A DNA stretch of 64,000 nucleotides from Escherichia phage Andreotti. Below, in pieces: positions 2,560 to 34,844 of this stretch; position 1 is the first letter of the stretch; every line of letters begins with the position of its first letter. The position numbers and the translations under genes are program-made. The notes under the pieces were generated by a model. It made no database searches and was not told the DNA's origin. It worked only from the letters and a program-made list of their open reading frames with translations. The stretch lies in the sequence record MN850610.1. One strand, 5' to 3'.

Positions 2560-3286
2560 CCCCTTTTAACCAGCACTTCAGGTTATTAGCATCATAATTC
2601 AGTTTCGGGTATGAGGTTACATGGAACTGCTCACCATCATAGTAGACAATATCTGCAATCCATAGTCCGTTCTCTTTACAGAAGTCTTTATCTGCTTTAG
2701 AGGTAATTGGATTAACTTCTACAAAACCATCTACACCCAAATCCTTTAAGCTACCTACAATACCTTTGCAGATAACGCATGTCTCAGATACTACCACAAA
2801 AAGTTCTTGGCTTTCAAGCTCTACAATGTATTCACCAAGCTGTACTTTAGGGAGATTTGATTGCTTCATAATCTTCCCATCGTCTGCACGGACAATCGCA
2901 TACCACTCTTTACCATCAACCACTGACATTCGAATAATACACTCTTGACCAGTACGCTTCTCAATATCTGCAAGACGTTTTAAAGCTTCTTCATAGTCAT
3001 CTGTGTACTTCAGGTCATTATTATGGCAAACAGCTTTCATAGCACCGTTATGGTCATGTTGTGACAGGTAAATCAAACCGTCAAGAACATATTGCAAATC
3101 TGCCTGAGCATCCAGTGTCTCAATGGGGTCTTTCTCTTCAATTGCTTTTACAAGCTCTTTTGCTTCTTCAAGCATACACAGAGATTGAGATTTTAAAGAT
3201 TCCCAATACTCATTACTGTAAGGTTGCTTTTGAGTGTTTCCACAACGAAGGTTCCAGTTTTTTACTGATTCTCTTGAGTTAAACAT
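2531..3286 (-). CDS. hypothetical protein (251 aa); N-terminal helical region weakly reminiscent of MazG-type NTP pyrophosphohydrolases
   Basis: ORF track; segment EEAKELVKAIEEKDPIETLDAQADLQYVLDGL resembles the EExxEL...DxL pattern; unverified. Confidence 0.5.
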   Translation of the reverse strand: MFNSRESVKNWNLRCGNTQKQPYSNEYWESLKSQSLCMLEEAKELVKAIEEKDPIETLDAQADLQYVLDGLIYLSQHDHNGAMKAVCHNNDLKYTDDYEEALKRLADIEKRTGQECIIRMSVVDGKEWYAIVRADDGKIMKQSNLPKVQLGEYIVELESQELFVVVSETCVICKGIVGSLKDLGVDGFVEVNPITSKADKDFCKENGLWIADIVYYDGEQFHVTSYPKLNYDANNLKCWLKGVGYNGFTEH

Positions 3287-3510
3287 TCGGACTCCTTAAA
3301 ATATCTGTTAACTTTTAGCTCTCGTGTTTCAATATATTCTAGATGCTCACGTAGCTCTTGACGTTTAAGCATTAGGTGCTGCATTTGTGATTCAACGGCT
3401 TCAACTTCTTTAATTATTGACTCTCTAGCATTTGCAAGAATGCGCTCAAGTTCTTCAATCTTACTGTCAACTTTTGCTACATGACTCACAGCTTTGCTTT
3501 TGTTAAACAT
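3262..3510 (-). CDS. hypothetical coiled-coil protein (82 aa)
   Basis: ORF track; heptad-like charged and hydrophobic pattern. Confidence 0.4.
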   Translation of the reverse strand: MFNKSKAVSHVAKVDSKIEELERILANARESIIKEVEAVESQMQHLMLKRQELREHLEYIETRELKVNRYFKESECLTQENQ

Positions 3511-3531
3511 TTTATTCTCTCTTAATAGTTA

Positions 3532-4032
3532 TCAAGCACAATTTGCTTTCATTACCTTATGGATTCTTTTTTCAGCATCTTCATAAGTTTCTTTAGTAAT
3601 AAACTTAATTGCTGCAATATTGGCATTGTAGAAGAGTCTGAGCTTCGAGTCAATCCTTTTTGTCATTACATCGAACTTATGCTGAAGGTTTGCTTCACCA
3701 TAAACTAGGCCACCTTTTGTGTAGTAGGTTTGGATAATGTAAAAATCAAAAGATTCCTTTCCAAAGCTCTCAATATCTTTTTTAATATACTCAGAAGAAG
3801 TTTCATAAGTCATCCAATCACTCTCCTTAGTGACTACCTTCTTCCGAGTCTTCCCAGCAACTTTTCTTTTGGTCACACTATTAAGCTGCTTCTTACCCAA
3901 ATAGTACTGTCCAGTCTTTTTGCAGTACACTAGGTAGACAAAACCAAAGTGCTTTGCTGGGTCAACTTCACCACATAGTGAAACCCAATGTCCATATTCA
4001 GGGCAATTGCCAAAACCTTTAACTTTAATCAT
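3532..4032 (-). CDS. GIY-YIG-like endonuclease (putative homing endonuclease)
   Basis: N-terminal GFVYLVYCKKTGQYYLGKK resembles the GIY...YIG motif; lies next to an HNH gene. Confidence 0.5.
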   Translation of the reverse strand: MIKVKGFGNCPEYGHWVSLCGEVDPAKHFGFVYLVYCKKTGQYYLGKKQLNSVTKRKVAGKTRKKVVTKESDWMTYETSSEYIKKDIESFGKESFDFYIIQTYYTKGGLVYGEANLQHKFDVMTKRIDSKLRLFYNANIAAIKFITKETYEDAEKRIHKVMKANCA

Positions 4033-4565
4033 TCATGAGCTTCTCCGTGATTTGTAAACTCTCTATGGAGTTCTTCTCTTTTCTTTTTGACAACTGATTC
4101 AGCCTCAGTGATAGAGTCAAATAAACCTAGATGGTAGCATACTTTATTATGCTTGACTTGTGCAGCCCACCTACCCCTTTGCTTGTGGTAATATACACCC
4201 TTCACACCAGACTTATTATCTTTTCTTTTGACTGCATTGCAGTTGTTGTCTGACCTGCTACACTCTCTCAAATTGTCGAACCAGTTGTCGTGCCTGATAC
4301 CATTCTTGTGGTCAACAAATTTTGGGAGGTATCCTTTCATATACAAGAATGCCAGTCTGTGTGCTGCATATCTTTTTCCGAAGAGTTTTATATAAATATA
4401 ACCACTATGATGTTTAAGACCTGCTACTGAGCCAGCTTTGGCCTTACCTTTTCTACCAACTAACCAAGTAAAGACCCCTGTTTCGGGGTCATAGTGCAGG
4501 TATTCTTTAAGAGTTTGTTGAGTTAACATTTGGTGTCCACCCATACTTATCAAAAGTGAAATCAT
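4029..4565 (-). CDS. HNH endonuclease with AP2-like C-terminal domain (putative homing endonuclease); true start may be internal (about 4529)
   Basis: YDPETGVFTW N-terminal motif; HNH-type region HRLAFLYMKGYLPKFVDHKNGIRHDNWFDNLRE; paralog of 14118-14633; 5' end overlaps the 3' end of the FEN gene. Confidence 0.75.
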   Translation of the reverse strand: MISLLISMGGHQMLTQQTLKEYLHYDPETGVFTWLVGRKGKAKAGSVAGLKHHSGYIYIKLFGKRYAAHRLAFLYMKGYLPKFVDHKNGIRHDNWFDNLRECSRSDNNCNAVKRKDNKSGVKGVYYHKQRGRWAAQVKHNKVCYHLGLFDSITEAESVVKKKREELHREFTNHGEAHE

Positions 4566-5553
4566 CTTTCTTGTTTCTTTCCTGATAAGCTAAGAAAAAG
4601 TGTTGCTGCATTAGCTCTAAGGGTGTTCTGGTAATTGTTTGACCATCCCACGAGACATAAGTGTATGACTCTTTCTTAGCATAAAGCTCATAAATTGCAT
4701 CAAGACACTCTTTGTAAGTGGTTTTACCTTCAAGGGCTTTCATTATAGTAACCTTACCAACACCCTTTAAACCAAAATAGTTATCCGCATTATCACCAGC
4801 CACAGCTTGGTAACAAAGAAATTTAAAACCTACCCCAACTGTCTTCTTAGCTTTTGGTGTCGATTTTATTGGGCAATCCCAAATTTCACCAACGTTGTTA
4901 TCAGCAATGAAAATCAAAGGTGACTTTTCATAGGTCATATCAATGCAGTAAGTCCCTTCAGCTTGGCGAAGGTCTTTATCAATACTCATTAAGGCAGCCT
5001 TTTTTCCCATCTTTTCAGCTTTAGCAATAACGATAGAGTCTGCTTCAAATCCATCAAGAATTAGTTTGAACTCTGGTCTTGACAGAAGATACTCACGACA
5101 AGCGACTAAGTGTGTTGGTGTGACAGCATCTTTACGGTTACCTTGATATTGGTGTTCAAGACCTTTAATGTCTTTATGTTTATGCACACCTTTCTCTGTT
5201 AAATAACCTACCCAAGTTCTTTCTTTACCCACAATCTTAAGCCATTCCTGAAGAACCTGTTGAGTAGCCATGATAGCTTCTTTTTCACTCTTAGCTTCTT
5301 TCCAAGTCTGTCTTTCCCATTCATCTTCATCAAATGTCAGGCCAAGTTCTTCCACAAGGATTCTCTGGTCTGCTAACCATCTTGCAGCGTCTTTCGCATT
5401 ATCAAATGGTTCAGATTCCTCTGCTGTGAGTTTATTGACATATTTATATTTTGCTTTCTCAACTACACAAGCACCTTTATAGGCAATACTGTCAGAGTCG
5501 ATAAAAACATGTGTAACTGAATCGGGAAGTTTTGGTAATGTGTACTTCTCCAT
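4507..5553 (-). CDS. 5'-3' exonuclease / flap endonuclease (FEN, T5 D15- or T7 gp6-like)
   Basis: motifs FIDSDSIAY, DGFEADSIVIA and GDNADNYFGLKGVGKVT match FEN-family acidic clusters and helix-hairpin-helix; RBS GGAGAG 5 nt upstream of ATG. Confidence 0.8.
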   Translation of the reverse strand: MEKYTLPKLPDSVTHVFIDSDSIAYKGACVVEKAKYKYVNKLTAEESEPFDNAKDAARWLADQRILVEELGLTFDEDEWERQTWKEAKSEKEAIMATQQVLQEWLKIVGKERTWVGYLTEKGVHKHKDIKGLEHQYQGNRKDAVTPTHLVACREYLLSRPEFKLILDGFEADSIVIAKAEKMGKKAALMSIDKDLRQAEGTYCIDMTYEKSPLIFIADNNVGEIWDCPIKSTPKAKKTVGVGFKFLCYQAVAGDNADNYFGLKGVGKVTIMKALEGKTTYKECLDAIYELYAKKESYTYVSWDGQTITRTPLELMQQHFFLAYQERNKKDDFTFDKYGWTPNVNSTNS

Positions 5554-22643: not shown

Positions 22644-23015
22644 TTATTTTTCAGTATTCTTTGTGTTCTTCTCAGTAATAGCTTGGAGGGCTGATACTGA
22701 TTGAGCCAGATTATTTACACTGTCAGAGAATTTATCAAGAGTTTTGGTAAGTTTTGCGTTTTCACCCTTAACATTCTCTAACTGAACTTTCTGGTTCTCC
22801 ATCCCTAGCTGAATCAGTCTCATGTCAGACTGTAAATCACGAATAGCTGAATAGTTACTTTTGGAATAATTATCTAGCTGCTGTAACTTTGTTGTGACAG
22901 ACACTTCTTGCTTACCACTTGAAACTTGCATAGTGGTATACATCCCAATAACACTAAAAATACCAACAACAATTACACCAATATTGTTTTTAAAAGCTTC
23001 CTCTAGCCACTTCAT
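22644..23015 (-). CDS. membrane-anchored coiled-coil protein (123 aa)
   Basis: N-terminal hydrophobic helix IGVIVVGIFSVIGMYTT followed by coiled-coil-like sequence. Confidence 0.5.
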   Translation of the reverse strand: MKWLEEAFKNNIGVIVVGIFSVIGMYTTMQVSSGKQEVSVTTKLQQLDNYSKSNYSAIRDLQSDMRLIQLGMENQKVQLENVKGENAKLTKTLDKFSDSVNNLAQSVSALQAITEKNTKNTEK

Positions 23016-23209
23016 TTATTCTCCCCCTTAAAAGCTTTTTCTAAGTTATCTACGAACTCATCATCAATAGGTGTGTCTGTTTTACTCGCAAGATATCTTG
23101 CAAGCCTAAAGAACACTTTCTCAATCATGTATTCACTTAGAAGGGATAAAATGAGTTTCCAGAAGAAGCTACCTAGATTTTTTAGAAGAATTGCTAGGAT
23201 TGTAGGCAT
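23012..23209 (-). CDS. hypothetical small protein with hydrophobic N-terminal segment (65 aa)
   Basis: ORF track; downstream of tail fibre gene. Confidence 0.4.
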   Translation of the reverse strand: MPTILAILLKNLGSFFWKLILSLLSEYMIEKVFFRLARYLASKTDTPIDDEFVDNLEKAFKGENK

Positions 23210-23288: not shown

Positions 23289-25631
23289 TTAAGCAGTTCT
23301 CACCCAAGCCATTAACTTGTAGAACTGGTTAGTAACACTAAATGCTGAACCAGAACCTGTACCACCAGTGTTACCACTTACTGTATGACTGTGAGCACCA
23401 ATACCAACACTGTGAGCATGGTTACCAGCAGAAGCGGCAGTACCACTTACGGAGTGGGTGTGAGCACCGTTAGCATCGGTGTAACCCGGTCCTACACCAA
23501 TACTACCACCACCACCACCAGAGTAGTGTGTAGAGTTCTGACCAATCCACGAAATGGAATGGTTGTGGTTACCAGCAGATGAAGTAGAGCCACTTACAGA
23601 GTGAGTGTGAGCACCAGTCGTGTTAGTGTTTTTTGTTCCGTAGTCAAACGATGAGGTAGTCGCAGAAAAACTGTGCGTGTGCGAAGGTAAGTTACCAACA
23701 GCTAACGTTACAGAATCTGAACCACCAGTTGTAGCAACATCTGAACCATTTGCTGCTGCAATTCTAATAGTCCTACCAACACCATTCTTCAGATACGTCC
23801 AAGTTAGGCCAGGCAGTGCTGTATTAGGGTTAACATTACTGTTAAACCACGTCACAATACCTACTGGATAGATTTTATTCAGGTCTGTAGAGTCACTAAT
23901 TGCTTCTGCAATCTTCTGGTCAGTTTCAGCTTTAGTGTATGCACCAATCTCTGAAGGGGTAGGTTTCTGAGCTTCAGTGTAAACCTTAGACCATTCAACC
24001 TCAAAGCCAAGTGTGTCTCTGGCTGACCTGTACCACATCCCACCATTTTTCGATTCAAATCTTAATTGTGCAGATGGTGTTAGGGCTTTCGCATTAGAGG
24101 CCATGTGCAAGACTAAACGGTTTTGCCCACTAGATTTTGTCTCAAGATAGATTCCTGATGGTTGGTCCCAAGCCACACCACCAGCAGCCTCGGTCTTCGA
24201 AGCTCTGAATGCTGACCAGAAATACTTTGAATCGGCTTTGTCTTTACCGTAATACCTTGCATCAAAGTTTGTGAAGTTGCTAGGTTGTACTTGACCACCA
24301 ATTACTAAGTTTGCATTAATTGATACTTCGGAACCAATGCTTAGTCTTTTACCAGTTTTATAGTTATACAACCTAACAGTGTCACTGCCGTCGTCATCAT
24401 TGCCAACATACCACCTATTCGTTCCATCATAATCCTTACCCATAATGTAAAGTTCGGAGGTTGATTTTCCTTGTAACACGAGAGCTTCACCATTAGTGTT
24501 AATAACCTGCTTTGCAGTGAACGTGTTACTTCCATTAGTTCTTGCAATTGTACTTAATGTTGCTGCTGGAATGTATCTAGAGTCAATGTTAGCCCAATCT
24601 GAAGGCTGAACTTGACCAGTGATTTTCACAGTCTTAGTAGTGGTAATCACATTTGACAAAGAGATAGTTGTACTCGTGGTGTAGTTATGTAGGTTGACTA
24701 CAGAATCAGAGTTATCAGTCCCTAAGTAGAACTTGTTTGTCCCATCAGCCTTCTGCCCCAGCAAGTATAGTCCAGTTGCAGCAGTGGCATTCTTAATGAC
24801 TAGTACAGCGTTATCTCTGGTGATATTGAACTCTCCTACAAAATTGTTAATACCCCTGAAGGTGTTATTGCCAACTAGCTGTGCAAATCTCTGATTAGCT
24901 GCTGTCTGTGTGAAGTATCTTGCATCCAAGTTAGAGAAGTCAGAAGGTTGCACTTGACCATTGATTGATAAAGACCTATTAAAAGAAGCAGCCGTGCCTA
25001 GAGTGAGGATGGAACCTAGTTTACTCTCGATTTGAACATCAAGACTACCCCTAATCAGGTTCCCAATAGCCCAAGTTTTTTCATTACTTGCATCCCTACC
25101 TACAATAGCAGAGTATGCTCTATCCCCACTCACAGGAGACCTTAGTGTTAACTGTTCCCCATTTGCTACAATTGTCTGTCTAGAGTTAAATGTGTTTGTA
25201 ACAGCCAACCTTGCATATCTTGCGTCATTCTCTTCATTAGTTCTCATCCCAAGTTCATTAGGGCTTGGCTTATTCAGAGTATGATAAACAGTTGCAGACC
25301 TTGAAGCATCTGCAATAGTTAGTTTAAGACCGTTTGCATTGATTTTAAAAGCCTTTAAAACATCCCCCATAGTAATCTCAGAAGAGTCTGTAGGGTCAAA
25401 TACTGCCTTACCACCATAAAGTAACTTGACAATTCCTAAGTCACCCGTCATAGTGCTACCAGCAATCTGAACAAATCTTTCTAGTTTAAAAGACGCTAAG
25501 AAGTCTTGATAGGTCATTCGACGGTCTTCATCACCTAACATTTCAGGTCTCTTTTTAACCCTGACATGGAGAAGGTCGTCTGAACGGATTGTGTCGATTG
25601 AGTTTAATTCACTCAACTTGTAATCTGCCAT
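23289..25631 (-). CDS. tail fibre protein (780 aa) with His-rich HxH repeats near C-terminus
   Basis: Ser/Thr/Gly/Asn-rich repeats; C-terminal AHTHSV, NHNHSI, AHSHTV, NHAHSV motifs; C-terminus paralogous to 25678-26826. Confidence 0.7.
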   Translation of the reverse strand: MADYKLSELNSIDTIRSDDLLHVRVKKRPEMLGDEDRRMTYQDFLASFKLERFVQIAGSTMTGDLGIVKLLYGGKAVFDPTDSSEITMGDVLKAFKINANGLKLTIADASRSATVYHTLNKPSPNELGMRTNEENDARYARLAVTNTFNSRQTIVANGEQLTLRSPVSGDRAYSAIVGRDASNEKTWAIGNLIRGSLDVQIESKLGSILTLGTAASFNRSLSINGQVQPSDFSNLDARYFTQTAANQRFAQLVGNNTFRGINNFVGEFNITRDNAVLVIKNATAATGLYLLGQKADGTNKFYLGTDNSDSVVNLHNYTTSTTISLSNVITTTKTVKITGQVQPSDWANIDSRYIPAATLSTIARTNGSNTFTAKQVINTNGEALVLQGKSTSELYIMGKDYDGTNRWYVGNDDDGSDTVRLYNYKTGKRLSIGSEVSINANLVIGGQVQPSNFTNFDARYYGKDKADSKYFWSAFRASKTEAAGGVAWDQPSGIYLETKSSGQNRLVLHMASNAKALTPSAQLRFESKNGGMWYRSARDTLGFEVEWSKVYTEAQKPTPSEIGAYTKAETDQKIAEAISDSTDLNKIYPVGIVTWFNSNVNPNTALPGLTWTYLKNGVGRTIRIAAANGSDVATTGGSDSVTLAVGNLPSHTHSFSATTSSFDYGTKNTNTTGAHTHSVSGSTSSAGNHNHSISWIGQNSTHYSGGGGGSIGVGPGYTDANGAHTHSVSGTAASAGNHAHSVGIGAHSHTVSGNTGGTGSGSAFSVTNQFYKLMAWVRTA

Positions 25632-25677
25632 TATAAATTTTCCTCTTAAAAGGGGCTATACAGCCCCTGTAAAGAAA

Positions 25678-26826
25678 TTAAGCTGTTCTCTGCCATACAT
25701 ACAATACGAAGGATGGCTGTTCAACACTAAATGCTTGACCAGAACCAGTTGGACCAGTTGTGCCAGAGTGCGAATGCTCACCTGCTCCGGTTACTGTTAC
25801 TGTTGCTGAGTGGCTGTGGGAACCAATTGCAACAGAATGGCTGTGAGCACCAATACCAACCGTATGATTATGCGCACCAATTGCTACAGAGTGAGTGTGG
25901 TTGTTAGCTGTTGTCAACGTAGCTCTTGGGTCATAGCTTGCCCCCTCAACCGATAAACCTCTCCAGCCACCATCAGCATAGCCACGGTTAATGAATGTTG
26001 TTTGTGTTAAGCCAGCGGCACTTGTTGTTCTGTTGCCATAGTCGTAAGTAGATACGGTCTTGGTTCCGTAGTCAAACGTTGTAGTCCCTTTAGTGCCATA
26101 ATCAAAAGCACTGATAGAGGACGTTGCACCATGAGTGTGACCGCCACCAGTGACATACACTGAGTGGGTATGTGCAGGGATGTTATTAACCGTCAATGCA
26201 GTAGTCTGTGAACCAAACGTTGAACCAACTGGCCTAGAAGCACTATCATAACCTACAAGTGCTCTTCCTTTTGAAACTAACTCCCAAGTGCCTCCACAAA
26301 TTAAATATGTAGAAGGGTTTGCAGGATTCATAGAGAGATGGATAGTACCTACTGGATAAGAAGCCTGAACAGCCTTGTACAAGTTATTTACTGCTCTTGC
26401 TGTAGCATACTTATCTGCATCCTCGTTATAAAGGTTAGATGTCACCCAGTTCTGAACATTACTTAACCCAACCTGTGCCTTAGTGGTATTGTGTGGGTTG
26501 CTCTTATCATCAATATGTTGTTGAATAAGATTATTAACCTCTTCTGAAGACATAATCTGTAGATTTGCTCTTGCCTCAGCTACATTAACAATGTCTGATA
26601 AGTTATTTTCAGCAACTAACTGGAGAGCATTAATAACGTTATCTAAACCAATTTGTGTCTTAGTAACACCATGAGGGTTATTTCTTAGGCTTGAGTGTGG
26701 AGCAAGTAATTGCTCAAGAGTGCATCTCTTATCCTCGATACCCTGTTTAAGATGGAAGATATCACTAAGGTCAATTGGTAAGGCTGCTTGAGGCAAGGCA
26801 CTAATTTGAATTTCACCTACTGCCAT
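25678..26826 (-). CDS. tail fibre protein (382 aa), paralogous C-terminal domain
   Basis: HTHSV / HNHTV / HSHSV repeats; C-terminal ...GSGQAFSVEQPSFVLYVWQRTA like ...GSGSAFSVTNQFYKLMAWVRTA. Confidence 0.65.
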   Translation of the reverse strand: MAVGEIQISALPQAALPIDLSDIFHLKQGIEDKRCTLEQLLAPHSSLRNNPHGVTKTQIGLDNVINALQLVAENNLSDIVNVAEARANLQIMSSEEVNNLIQQHIDDKSNPHNTTKAQVGLSNVQNWVTSNLYNEDADKYATARAVNNLYKAVQASYPVGTIHLSMNPANPSTYLICGGTWELVSKGRALVGYDSASRPVGSTFGSQTTALTVNNIPAHTHSVYVTGGGHTHGATSSISAFDYGTKGTTTFDYGTKTVSTYDYGNRTTSAAGLTQTTFINRGYADGGWRGLSVEGASYDPRATLTTANNHTHSVAIGAHNHTVGIGAHSHSVAIGSHSHSATVTVTGAGEHSHSGTTGPTGSGQAFSVEQPSFVLYVWQRTA

Positions 26827-26828
26827 TA

Positions 26829-34844
<8,016 letters not shown>

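Follow-up and report, generated by a model that had tools for sequence, protein, structure and literature searches.

Described fibres related to the locus

The closest described system is Bas63 (Escherichia phage JohannRWettstein), for which a 2025 cryo-EM study reported a collar, a needle bearing His-x-His (HxH) motifs and a head on both the short tail fibre (STF) and the long tail fibre (LTF) (PMC12609058). That study also found the tips to be hypervariable across the genus, with variable beta-helix repeats as well; its fibre density was too coarse for side-chain modelling (PMC12609058). Bas63 and Escherichia phage Andreotti, of which we analysed a 64,000-nucleotide stretch (MN850610.1, hereafter the window), belong to one genus and have a common gene order. 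Bas63 gp26 is 97% identical to the window STF (372/382; tips 98%), and gp27 is 70% identical to the window LTF (545/778; tips 92%), the overall LTF value of only ~70% resulting from differences in the beta-helix repeat domains. The HxH counts are the same in both phages, seven in the STF and six in the LTF (PMC12609058), and the two LTFs differ locally in that Bas63 has HHxH at residues 692–695 and the window protein NHNH at 688–691. The tip architecture that we describe on both window fibres is thus real but already known from near-identical Bas63 proteins (PMC12609058): because architecture, motif counts and variability have been published for proteins 92–98% identical in the tips, none of these is new for the window.

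More distantly, Shigella phage Sf14, of the same subfamily (Ounavirinae), has two fibres, gp52 and gp53, with matching domain organisation (PMC11821841); its tips are only ~52% identical to the window LTF tip. The Sf14 fibres combine a T4 gp37-like distal tip with a domain like the Gp10 C terminus, and the authors reported no fibre chaperone genes (PMC11821841). The collar and HxH-needle module is also common to fibres of P2-like prophages (Erwinia, Serratia, Providencia and Photorhabdus), lambda Stf and the distal fibres of T-even phages, as captured by the Pfam families PF03335, PF21939, PF03406 and PF12571; the HxH repeat itself also occurs in lambda Stf and phage 9g. The P2-like prophage fibres differ from the window fibres in their N-terminal shafts, which are P2 gpH-like.

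Fibre genes of the window

The window derives from a Felixounavirus whose DNA is 98.9% identical to that of phage humlepung, and it carries the following fibre and baseplate genes:

23289..25631, minus strand: LTF gene, 780 aa; open reading frame, orthologue of Bas63 gp27
25678..26826, minus strand: STF gene, 382 aa; open reading frame, orthologue of Bas63 gp26
26829..27131, minus strand: 100-aa protein, orthologue of Bas63 gp25; full-length phrog_4141 match, position as bas63_0025
27131-27988, minus strand: baseplate wedge 1, 285 aa; Pfam/PHROG matches, length agrees with Bas63 gp24
27991-29460, minus strand: baseplate wedge 2, 489 aa, Baseplate_J; Pfam/PHROG matches, length agrees with Bas63 gp23

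The order wedge 2, wedge 1, LTF platform, STF, LTF is identical in humlepung, Bas63, Felix O1 and 28 IMG/VR loci. In Bas63, gp25 is the 'LTF platform', a trimer resembling T4 gp9 on which the long fibre is mounted, and the two wedge proteins are where this platform and the STF attach (PMC12609058). The LTF runs from an N-terminal baseplate-binding part through variable beta-helix repeat domains and a gp37_C-like domain to a gp37-type tip; it matches the Pfam models gp37_trimer (three times), gp37_C and Phage_fiber, and over its full length the PHROG tail-fibre family phrog_4277. The STF matches Pfam Gp10_C (64.9 bits) and the tail-fibre family phrog_2097. Together with the orthology to Bas63 gp26 and gp27, these matches agree with the first-pass annotation of the window, which had called both genes tail fibres.

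We consider it highly probable (about 88%) that both genes encode homotrimeric Felixounavirus baseplate fibres, each ending in a metal-riveted receptor-binding tip of the T4 gp37 type with a variable receptor-contact head.

A shared tip module with HxH motifs

Each fibre ends in a module in which a needle with HxH motifs and a head are inserted into a collar, with motifs on both an ascending and a descending strand:

23292..23870, minus strand: LTF receptor-binding tip module, aa 588-780; assigned by the 2XGF match, gp37 alignment and Bas63 gp27 tip
23385..23681, minus strand: span of the HxH motifs of the LTF (six; first His at aa 651, 675, 689, 724, 738 and 747); motif count
23673-23681, 23601-23609, 23559-23567, minus strand: LTF ascending-strand HxH motifs
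23454-23462, 23412-23420, 23385-23393, minus strand: LTF descending-strand HxH motifs
25681..26358, minus strand: STF receptor-binding tip module, aa 157-382; assigned by the 2XGF and 2FKK matches and Bas63 gp26 tip
25768..26172, minus strand: span of the HxH motifs of the STF (seven; first His at aa 219, 230, 310, 319, 328, 337 and 351)
26164-26172, 26131-26139, minus strand: STF ascending-strand HxH motifs
25891-25899, 25864-25872, 25837-25845, 25810-25818, 25768-25776, minus strand: STF descending-strand HxH motifs

The LTF collar starts at YPVG and is closed by a C-terminal strand ending in AWVRTA. The STF tip comprises a collar, a needle with its seven HxH motifs and three FDYGTK-like repeats, a head, and a C-terminal strand ending in YVWQRTA. 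The motifs are split 3+3 between ascending and descending strands in the LTF and 2+5 in the STF, where four of the descending motifs are spaced 9 aa (27 nt) apart, a period also seen at the DNA level as repeat family D2.

The two modules (~195 and ~225 aa) align with 36% identity (LTF 588–780 versus STF 157–382; BLASTP with composition adjustment, E 7e-21), which bears out the homologous HxH-bearing C-terminal module proposed for these genes in the first-pass annotation; all six His-x-His motifs that it quoted are present in the window proteins. Its description of the C-terminal sequences as near-identical was too strong. They are only similar: the last 24 residues, GTGSGSAFSVTNQFYKLMAWVRTA in the LTF and PTGSGQAFSVEQPSFVLYVWQRTA in the STF, agree at 13/24 positions.

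The HxH region is biased in composition, and the block could in principle be a chance low-complexity product of sequence rich in Gly, Ser, Thr and His. We reject this origin, which we regard as vanishingly improbable. Among 20,000 composition-preserving shuffles per protein, HxH counts averaged 0.35 for the LTF and 0.99 for the STF and never exceeded 4 and 6, respectively; the 6 and 7 motifs of the real proteins were reached in 0/20,000. The alignment of the two tips is significant despite composition adjustment, and the His columns are invariant across >100 homologues; all 14 motif His of the STF are invariant among 24 unique relatives.

Homology to the T4 gp37 needle

The resemblance of the HxH block to T4 gp37, which the first-pass annotation had noted, reflects true homology, as judged from matches to the gp37 tip crystal structure (2XGF; phmmer E 1e-17 for the LTF tip and 9e-14 for the STF tip) and from the alignment of iron-binding His pairs. 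A profile search also recovered the gp37 tip (E 4e-16), and in a MAFFT alignment to gp37 ~785–1026 the LTF tip is 43% and the STF tip 34% identical (range for the LTF tip, 43–45%). Homology extends across collar, needle and C-terminal strand. The HxH motifs of the outgoing and returning strands align with gp37 iron-ligand pairs from H883/885 through H998/1000, the matching His pairs numbering six in the LTF and five in the STF; those of the LTF align with H883/885, 915/917, 929/931, 966/968, 980/982 and 989/991. T4 gp37 has seven HxH motifs, of which the LTF lacks the last (SHGHT in T4, GNTGG in the LTF). The STF departs further from gp37, with two ascending and five descending motifs, extra proximal motifs and the three FDYGTK-like repeats. 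The window fibres and gp37 nevertheless have in common HxH periodicities of 14 and 9 aa and a variable tip at the hairpin turn. The PF03335 Phage_fiber model, a 14-residue HxH repeat, matches the LTF marginally in three stretches (20.5 bits; threshold 20 bits) and has no match in the STF at E <= 0.1.

The collar of gp37 is likewise split by the needle insertion: its D10 collar consists of residues 811–881 plus 1010–1026 (domain boundaries from PMC6957217), the needle being domain D11, and a three-way alignment of LTF, STF and gp37 shows no variation in either the YP.G start or the terminal R-x-A. The window collars differ from that of gp37 in being of the Gp10_C type. For PF21939 Gp10_C (gathering threshold 27 bits), the STF scores above threshold and the LTF below it at 22.3 bits, although close LTF homologues carry a precomputed PF21939 match. 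The STF tip also matches the C-terminal domain of T4 gp10 (2FKK; phmmer E 5e-6). Collar domains occur in T4 gp10, gp11 and gp12, proteins without a long HxH needle; gp12 binds a single zinc ion through His residues.

These collar similarities raise the alternative that the 382-aa protein is a gp10-like baseplate structural protein and not a receptor-binding fibre. Gp10_C is indeed the best Pfam match of the STF (2e-17), the protein matches T4 gp10 structures, and many of its database homologues are labelled 'phage baseplate protein'. The Gp10_C match, however, is limited to the collar (aa 154–259), the remainder of the tip matches the gp37 needle, and the distal segment is hypervariable, as is typical of receptor binding. 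Moreover, Bas63 gp26, its 97% identical orthologue, is visible as a 430-angstrom fibre (PMC12609058). We therefore judge a purely structural baseplate role very unlikely.

For the window fibres, we infer the following about the geometry of the trimer, the identity and occupancy of the metal, and the receptor. Leaving the small collar domain, each chain would contribute an outgoing strand to a trimeric needle of six strands, fold into a small head at its distal tip and return, its last residues completing the collar. Each HxH motif is predicted to be directed at the three-fold axis, where three copies of one motif would present six His that together bind one metal ion, which is iron in T4 gp37. 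One ion per motif trimer leads us to expect six ions in the long fibre and seven in the short one. These ions would act as rivets that stiffen the needle. Head and distal needle would make the receptor contact, probably with the LPS core. This is also the region in which related phages vary, and the window phage has a different head on each fibre. In overall build, the window fibre is one polypeptide placed directly on the baseplate, whereas the T4 fibre consists of four proteins.

AlphaFold2 monomer models of both tips (alignments of 109 and 73 sequences) are of moderate confidence, with the heads below pLDDT 50–60; in the STF model, pLDDT falls below 50 at model residues 130–178 (STF aa 265–313). 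A Foldseek search of the PDB returned no significant match, the best being T4 gp10 and Bizionia C24 (E 0.02–0.3).

Variability is concentrated in the distal needle and head

Conservation among relatives delimits one variable stretch in each fibre:

23412..23591, minus strand: LTF hypervariable zone, aa 681-740, distal needle and head
23463-23558, minus strand: LTF head, ~aa 692-723; presumed receptor-contact site
25867..26046, minus strand: STF hypervariable zone, aa 261-320, distal needle and head

In 20-aa bins, the window residue at LTF aa 681–720 is matched by only 0.32–0.46 of 26 unique relatives, whereas the collar and proximal needle on either side reach 0.82–0.95. Values at STF aa 261–320 are similarly low (0.25–0.46). 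In both fibres, the hypervariable stretch lies at the hairpin turn, with conservation of 0.8–0.95 on either side; in T4, the LTF stretch corresponds to the gp37 tip subdomain 932–959 (PMC6957217). The suggestion in the first-pass annotation that these tips matter for host range fits this pattern, as variation among related phages sits where a host-range determinant would be expected to vary. Thirty-four phage records contain the window STF head allele at 95% identity or more, and nearly all of these phages were isolated on laboratory strains such as E. coli K-12. The tips are likely host-range determinants in a phage group that serves in Salmonella diagnostics and is under consideration for therapy, and the head plus distal needle between conserved HxH boxes would be the swappable unit for the design of fibre chimeras.

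Origin of the paired tips and possible exchange of heads

The first-pass annotation explained the paired tips by duplication and divergence. The tips are homologous, but a simple duplication inside the phage finds no support in the identities between tips, in the 28 loci in which the genes have already diverged, or in the short DNA matches. A recent tip duplication in the window phage lineage, followed by divergence, would account for two adjacent genes on the same strand with a common tip architecture, and some relatives do share a head segment between their fibres (81% nucleotide identity over 270 nt in Felix O1; 91% over 200 nt in L004). The window tips, however, are only 36–44% identical to each other, depending on the alignment, and T4 gp37 is about as near to the LTF tip as is the window STF. 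The LTF tip has greater identity to prophage tips from Erwinia, Serratia and Providencia (P2-like; mostly 43–59% over >85% of the LTF tip length) than to its own STF, and current identities speak against an LTF/STF sister pair that excludes the prophage and T-even tips. All 28 of 28 related loci already hold both genes in diverged form (tips 27–40% identical). We consider such a recent duplication unlikely. We also rejected recent gene conversion between the two window genes, since their longest DNA matches span only 22–36 nt.

Felix O1 and L004 carry nearly identical heads on their STF and LTF, and we found no description of such within-genome head sharing in the literature examined. We tentatively suggest that the distal needle and head, bounded by HxH boxes, may form a mobile cassette that moves between the fibres of one Felixounavirus and between Ounavirinae and T-even phages. 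If so, the window phage would be a two-head variant with two receptor specificities, and Felix O1 a one-head variant.

Another reading takes the HxH boxes chiefly as conserved DNA landing pads for head-cassette recombination, with metal binding secondary; Tetart et al. (1998) reportedly proposed such 'His boxes' as recombination sites in T-even adhesins. Near-invariant HxH-coding sequence does lie on both sides of the variable head, and in relatives cassettes have been exchanged at breakpoints that fall within the needle, both between T4 gene 37 and the L019 LTF (93% nucleotide identity over 287 nt) and between STF and LTF inside Felix O1 and L004. A landing-pad role is compatible with the structural one, however, and not an alternative to it. 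The His are kept at the protein level despite DNA divergence, the window genes sharing matches of at most 36 nt, and alanine in place of the iron-binding His is lethal in T4 (PMC6957217). A chiefly recombinational role for the boxes is possible but doubtful.

Fibre assembly genes

T4 gp37 depends on the chaperones gp38 and gp57A, which is a property of T4 gp37 and not of the fold, and fibre genes of P2-like prophages typically have a Tfa-type chaperone gene downstream. Within the window, which covers part of the genome, a tblastn search with T4 gp38 revealed no homologue (best E 0.2), and the two open reading frames downstream of the fibre genes have no chaperone family match. These two frames resemble small membrane or coiled-coil proteins, and one of them is annotated as a holin in humlepung.

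HxH motifs in two adjoining tail fibres

The two tail-fibre ORFs reported by the first-pass annotation were found exactly where it placed them, on the minus strand, and encode the long (LTF) and short (STF) fibres:

23289–25631, minus strand: LTF ORF, 780 aa
25678–26826, minus strand: STF ORF, 382 aa, adjoining the LTF ORF

Every His-x-His (HxH) motif quoted from the two C-terminal blocks is present, with six in LTF (starting at aa 651, 675, 689, 724, 738 and 747) and seven in STF (aa 219, 230, 310, 319, 328, 337 and 351). When each protein was shuffled 20,000 times, the mean HxH count was 0.35 for LTF and 0.99 for STF, and the observed counts were never attained. The two C-terminal modules align by BLASTP at 36% identity (LTF 588–780 versus STF 157–382; E = 7e-21). 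Their C-termini, described as near-identical, are only similar, with 13 of the last 24 residues matching; apart from this overstatement, the observation is confirmed.

The region shares 98.9% DNA identity with humlepung, an Escherichia phage of the genus Felixounavirus isolated on E. coli K-12, whose LTF and STF counterparts are annotated as tail fibre proteins. Gene order runs from baseplate wedge 2 (489 aa, Baseplate_J) through wedge 1 (285 aa), a 100-aa protein, STF and LTF to two small ORFs, followed by thymidylate synthase and DHFR on the opposite strand, and is kept in Bas63 (Escherichia phage JohannRWettstein), Felix O1 and 28 IMG/VR loci. The small ORFs are:

23012–23209, minus strand: 65 aa, directly downstream of LTF
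22644–23015, minus strand: 123 aa, with a start/stop overlap with the 65-aa ORF

Both have a hydrophobic N-terminus. The 123-aa ORF has a coiled-coil tail and only weak DivIC and Rz-like matches, and is annotated as a holin in humlepung; counterparts of the 65-aa ORF are annotated at only 37 aa in humlepung, but Bas63 and Felix O1 have them at 65 and 64 aa. An arrangement in which a fibre gene precedes a small ORF and a holin is reminiscent of T4 genes 37, 38 and t; a comparison of T4 gp38 with the window found no similarity.

Homology to the T4 gp37 tip

In phmmer searches, both C-terminal modules matched the crystal structure of the T4 gp37 receptor-binding tip (PDB 2XGF; E = 1e-17 for LTF and 9e-14 for STF), so the resemblance to gp37 first proposed from the motifs reflects homology. 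A profile of 109 LTF-tip homologues matched the gp37 tip at E = 4e-16. The collar start YPxG, the FDYGTK motif and the terminal R-x-A are kept in the three-way alignment, as are five His pairs common to LTF, STF and gp37. The seven HxH motifs of gp37 lie within residues 883–1000, and the protein holds the same number of iron ions (PMC6957217). In the alignment, the six pairs of LTF fall on gp37 H883/885, 915/917, 929/931, 966/968, 980/982 and 989/991, whereas GNTGG occupies the place of the seventh. Of the gp37 pairs, STF has the first and the four on the descending strand but not the two distal ascending ones; it carries two additional proximal pairs and three FDYGTK-like repeats. The collar corresponds to Pfam Gp10_C (64.9 bits in STF; 22.3 bits, sub-threshold, in LTF), and the 14-residue HxH repeat to Phage_fiber, matched marginally and by LTF only.

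The coordinates of the two tips are:

23292–23870, minus strand: LTF tip, aa 588–780
25681–26358, minus strand: STF tip, aa 157–382

In gp37, the collar (D10) comprises residues 811–881 plus 1010–1026, and the needle (D11, 882–1009) is inserted in it, with stem strands running out and back and a tip subdomain at 932–959; each iron is bound by three chains through the same His pair; these histidines are essential (PMC6957217). By homology, the LTF and STF tips should form trimeric needles with axial metal sites, six in LTF and seven in STF, and the distal head of each would be the receptor-binding part. We infer that the window tips bind metal, as first suggested. The structure predictions for the LTF and STF tips are of monomers (pLDDT 73.8 and 67.8).

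The two-tip feature is already published and is a known feature of a known phage genus. Bas63 gp26, the STF orthologue, is 97% identical to the window protein (tip 98%) and gp27, the LTF orthologue, 70% (tip 92%), with equal HxH counts in both fibres. The Bas63 cryo-EM study describes a gp37-like tip of collar, HxH needle and head on both fibres, places the variability across Felixounavirus in these tips and in the beta-helix repeats of LTF, and identifies gp25 as a gp9-like LTF platform (PMC12609058, Sci Adv 2025). Phage Sf14 shares this two-fibre organisation, and Mu-type fibre chaperones are absent from it (PMC11821841).

Duplication versus module exchange

The paired tips had been taken to suggest duplication and divergence. 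The LTF tip is mostly 43–59% identical, over >85% of its length, to P2-like prophage fibre tips (Erwinia, Serratia, Providencia and Photorhabdus), 43–45% identical to T4 gp37 and 36–44% to its own STF, varying with alignment. All related loci have both fibre genes, with tip-to-tip identities of 27–40%, and no DNA match >36 nt was found between the LTF and STF genes of the window. Together, these comparisons argue that LTF and STF carry separate versions of a widespread, exchangeable tip module, without recent in-phage duplication. Duplication thus holds in a deep sense only and fails as a recent event; the earlier interpretation was largely right, its duplication idea too simple.

Distal needle and head are common to STF and LTF in Felix O1 (1529–2695 versus 2746–5094 of locus L032; 81% DNA identity over 270 nt) and in the 87,603-bp phage of related locus L004 (91% over 200 nt; 65 of 76 residues identical). 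Nearly the same distal needle and head, G[RH]YGGDSIGGK.RV...SGT.QVSSVAGDHSHT, occurs in both fibres of Felix O1 and of several Salmonella-type relatives (L004, L007, L018 and L028), which points to exchange between the two genes inside one genome. The heads of the window phage differ (17/43). Long fibres of some Felixounavirus phages are almost identical to T4 gp37 in one segment; their genes match T4 gene 37 (L002, 8895–9623) over 287 nt, L019 (8813–11236) at 93% and L009 (8813–11245) at 88%, spanning about gp37 aa 898–993, the head and distal needle; this similarity indicates recent exchange of that segment between Ounavirinae and T-even phages. From these alignments, distal needle and head clearly appear to have been swapped as a cassette in some relatives, a possible small follow-up.

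Variation across relatives and hosts

Both fibre genes were compared across 28 loci, located through a wedge-1 protein 81–99% identical to that of the window; identity to the window proteins was 41–69% for LTF and 63–99% for STF. Conservation is 0.8–0.95 in the N-terminal baseplate-binding parts, collars and proximal needles, and falls to 0.25–0.46 in the distal needle and head (LTF aa 681–720 and STF aa 261–320). All 14 STF histidines are invariant among relatives. Of the six pairs in LTF, four show no variation and the two closest to the head are missing in 5 of 26 alleles. LTF alleles carry 4, 6 or 7 HxH motifs. Among the STF needles compared, the window/Bas63 design has seven (two ascending, five descending) and a third FDYGTK-like repeat, and the other, found in most relatives including Felix O1, has nine (4 + 5).

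The STF head allele of the window recurs at at least 95% identity in 34 phage records and the LTF head allele at at least 80% in 42, almost all from phages whose isolation host was E. coli K-12 or another laboratory strain. This distribution fits recognition of the LPS core, which Bas63 requires (PMC8594841).

LTF shaft

The beta-helix domains of LTF are separated by three copies of a 15-aa linker, GQVQPS-[DN]-[FW]-x-N-x-D-[AS]-RY:

24252–24296, minus strand: linker copy
24573–24617, minus strand: linker copy
24915–24959, minus strand: linker copy

The linker is conserved genus-wide (bin conservation 0.65–0.86, versus 0.27–0.47 for the intervening domains), and its copies are 70–75% identical in DNA (repeat families D4 and D6). 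In two relatives the long-fibre gene lies in two ORFs (L024, 8882–10507 and 10473–11252; L028, 8880–10241 and 10288–11223), which could reflect a frameshift or sequencing error, or the gene may be truly split. Shaft stretches aa 381–477 and 484–575 match other phage fibres, the similarity to Mu protein S, a fibre protein (PDB 8JU3; E = 1e-17, Pfam gp37_C), being clear and that to the T7 fibre gp17 (PDB 4A0T; E = 0.017) weak. By these matches, LTF is a mosaic of modules also found in Mu-like, T4-like and probably T7-like fibres.
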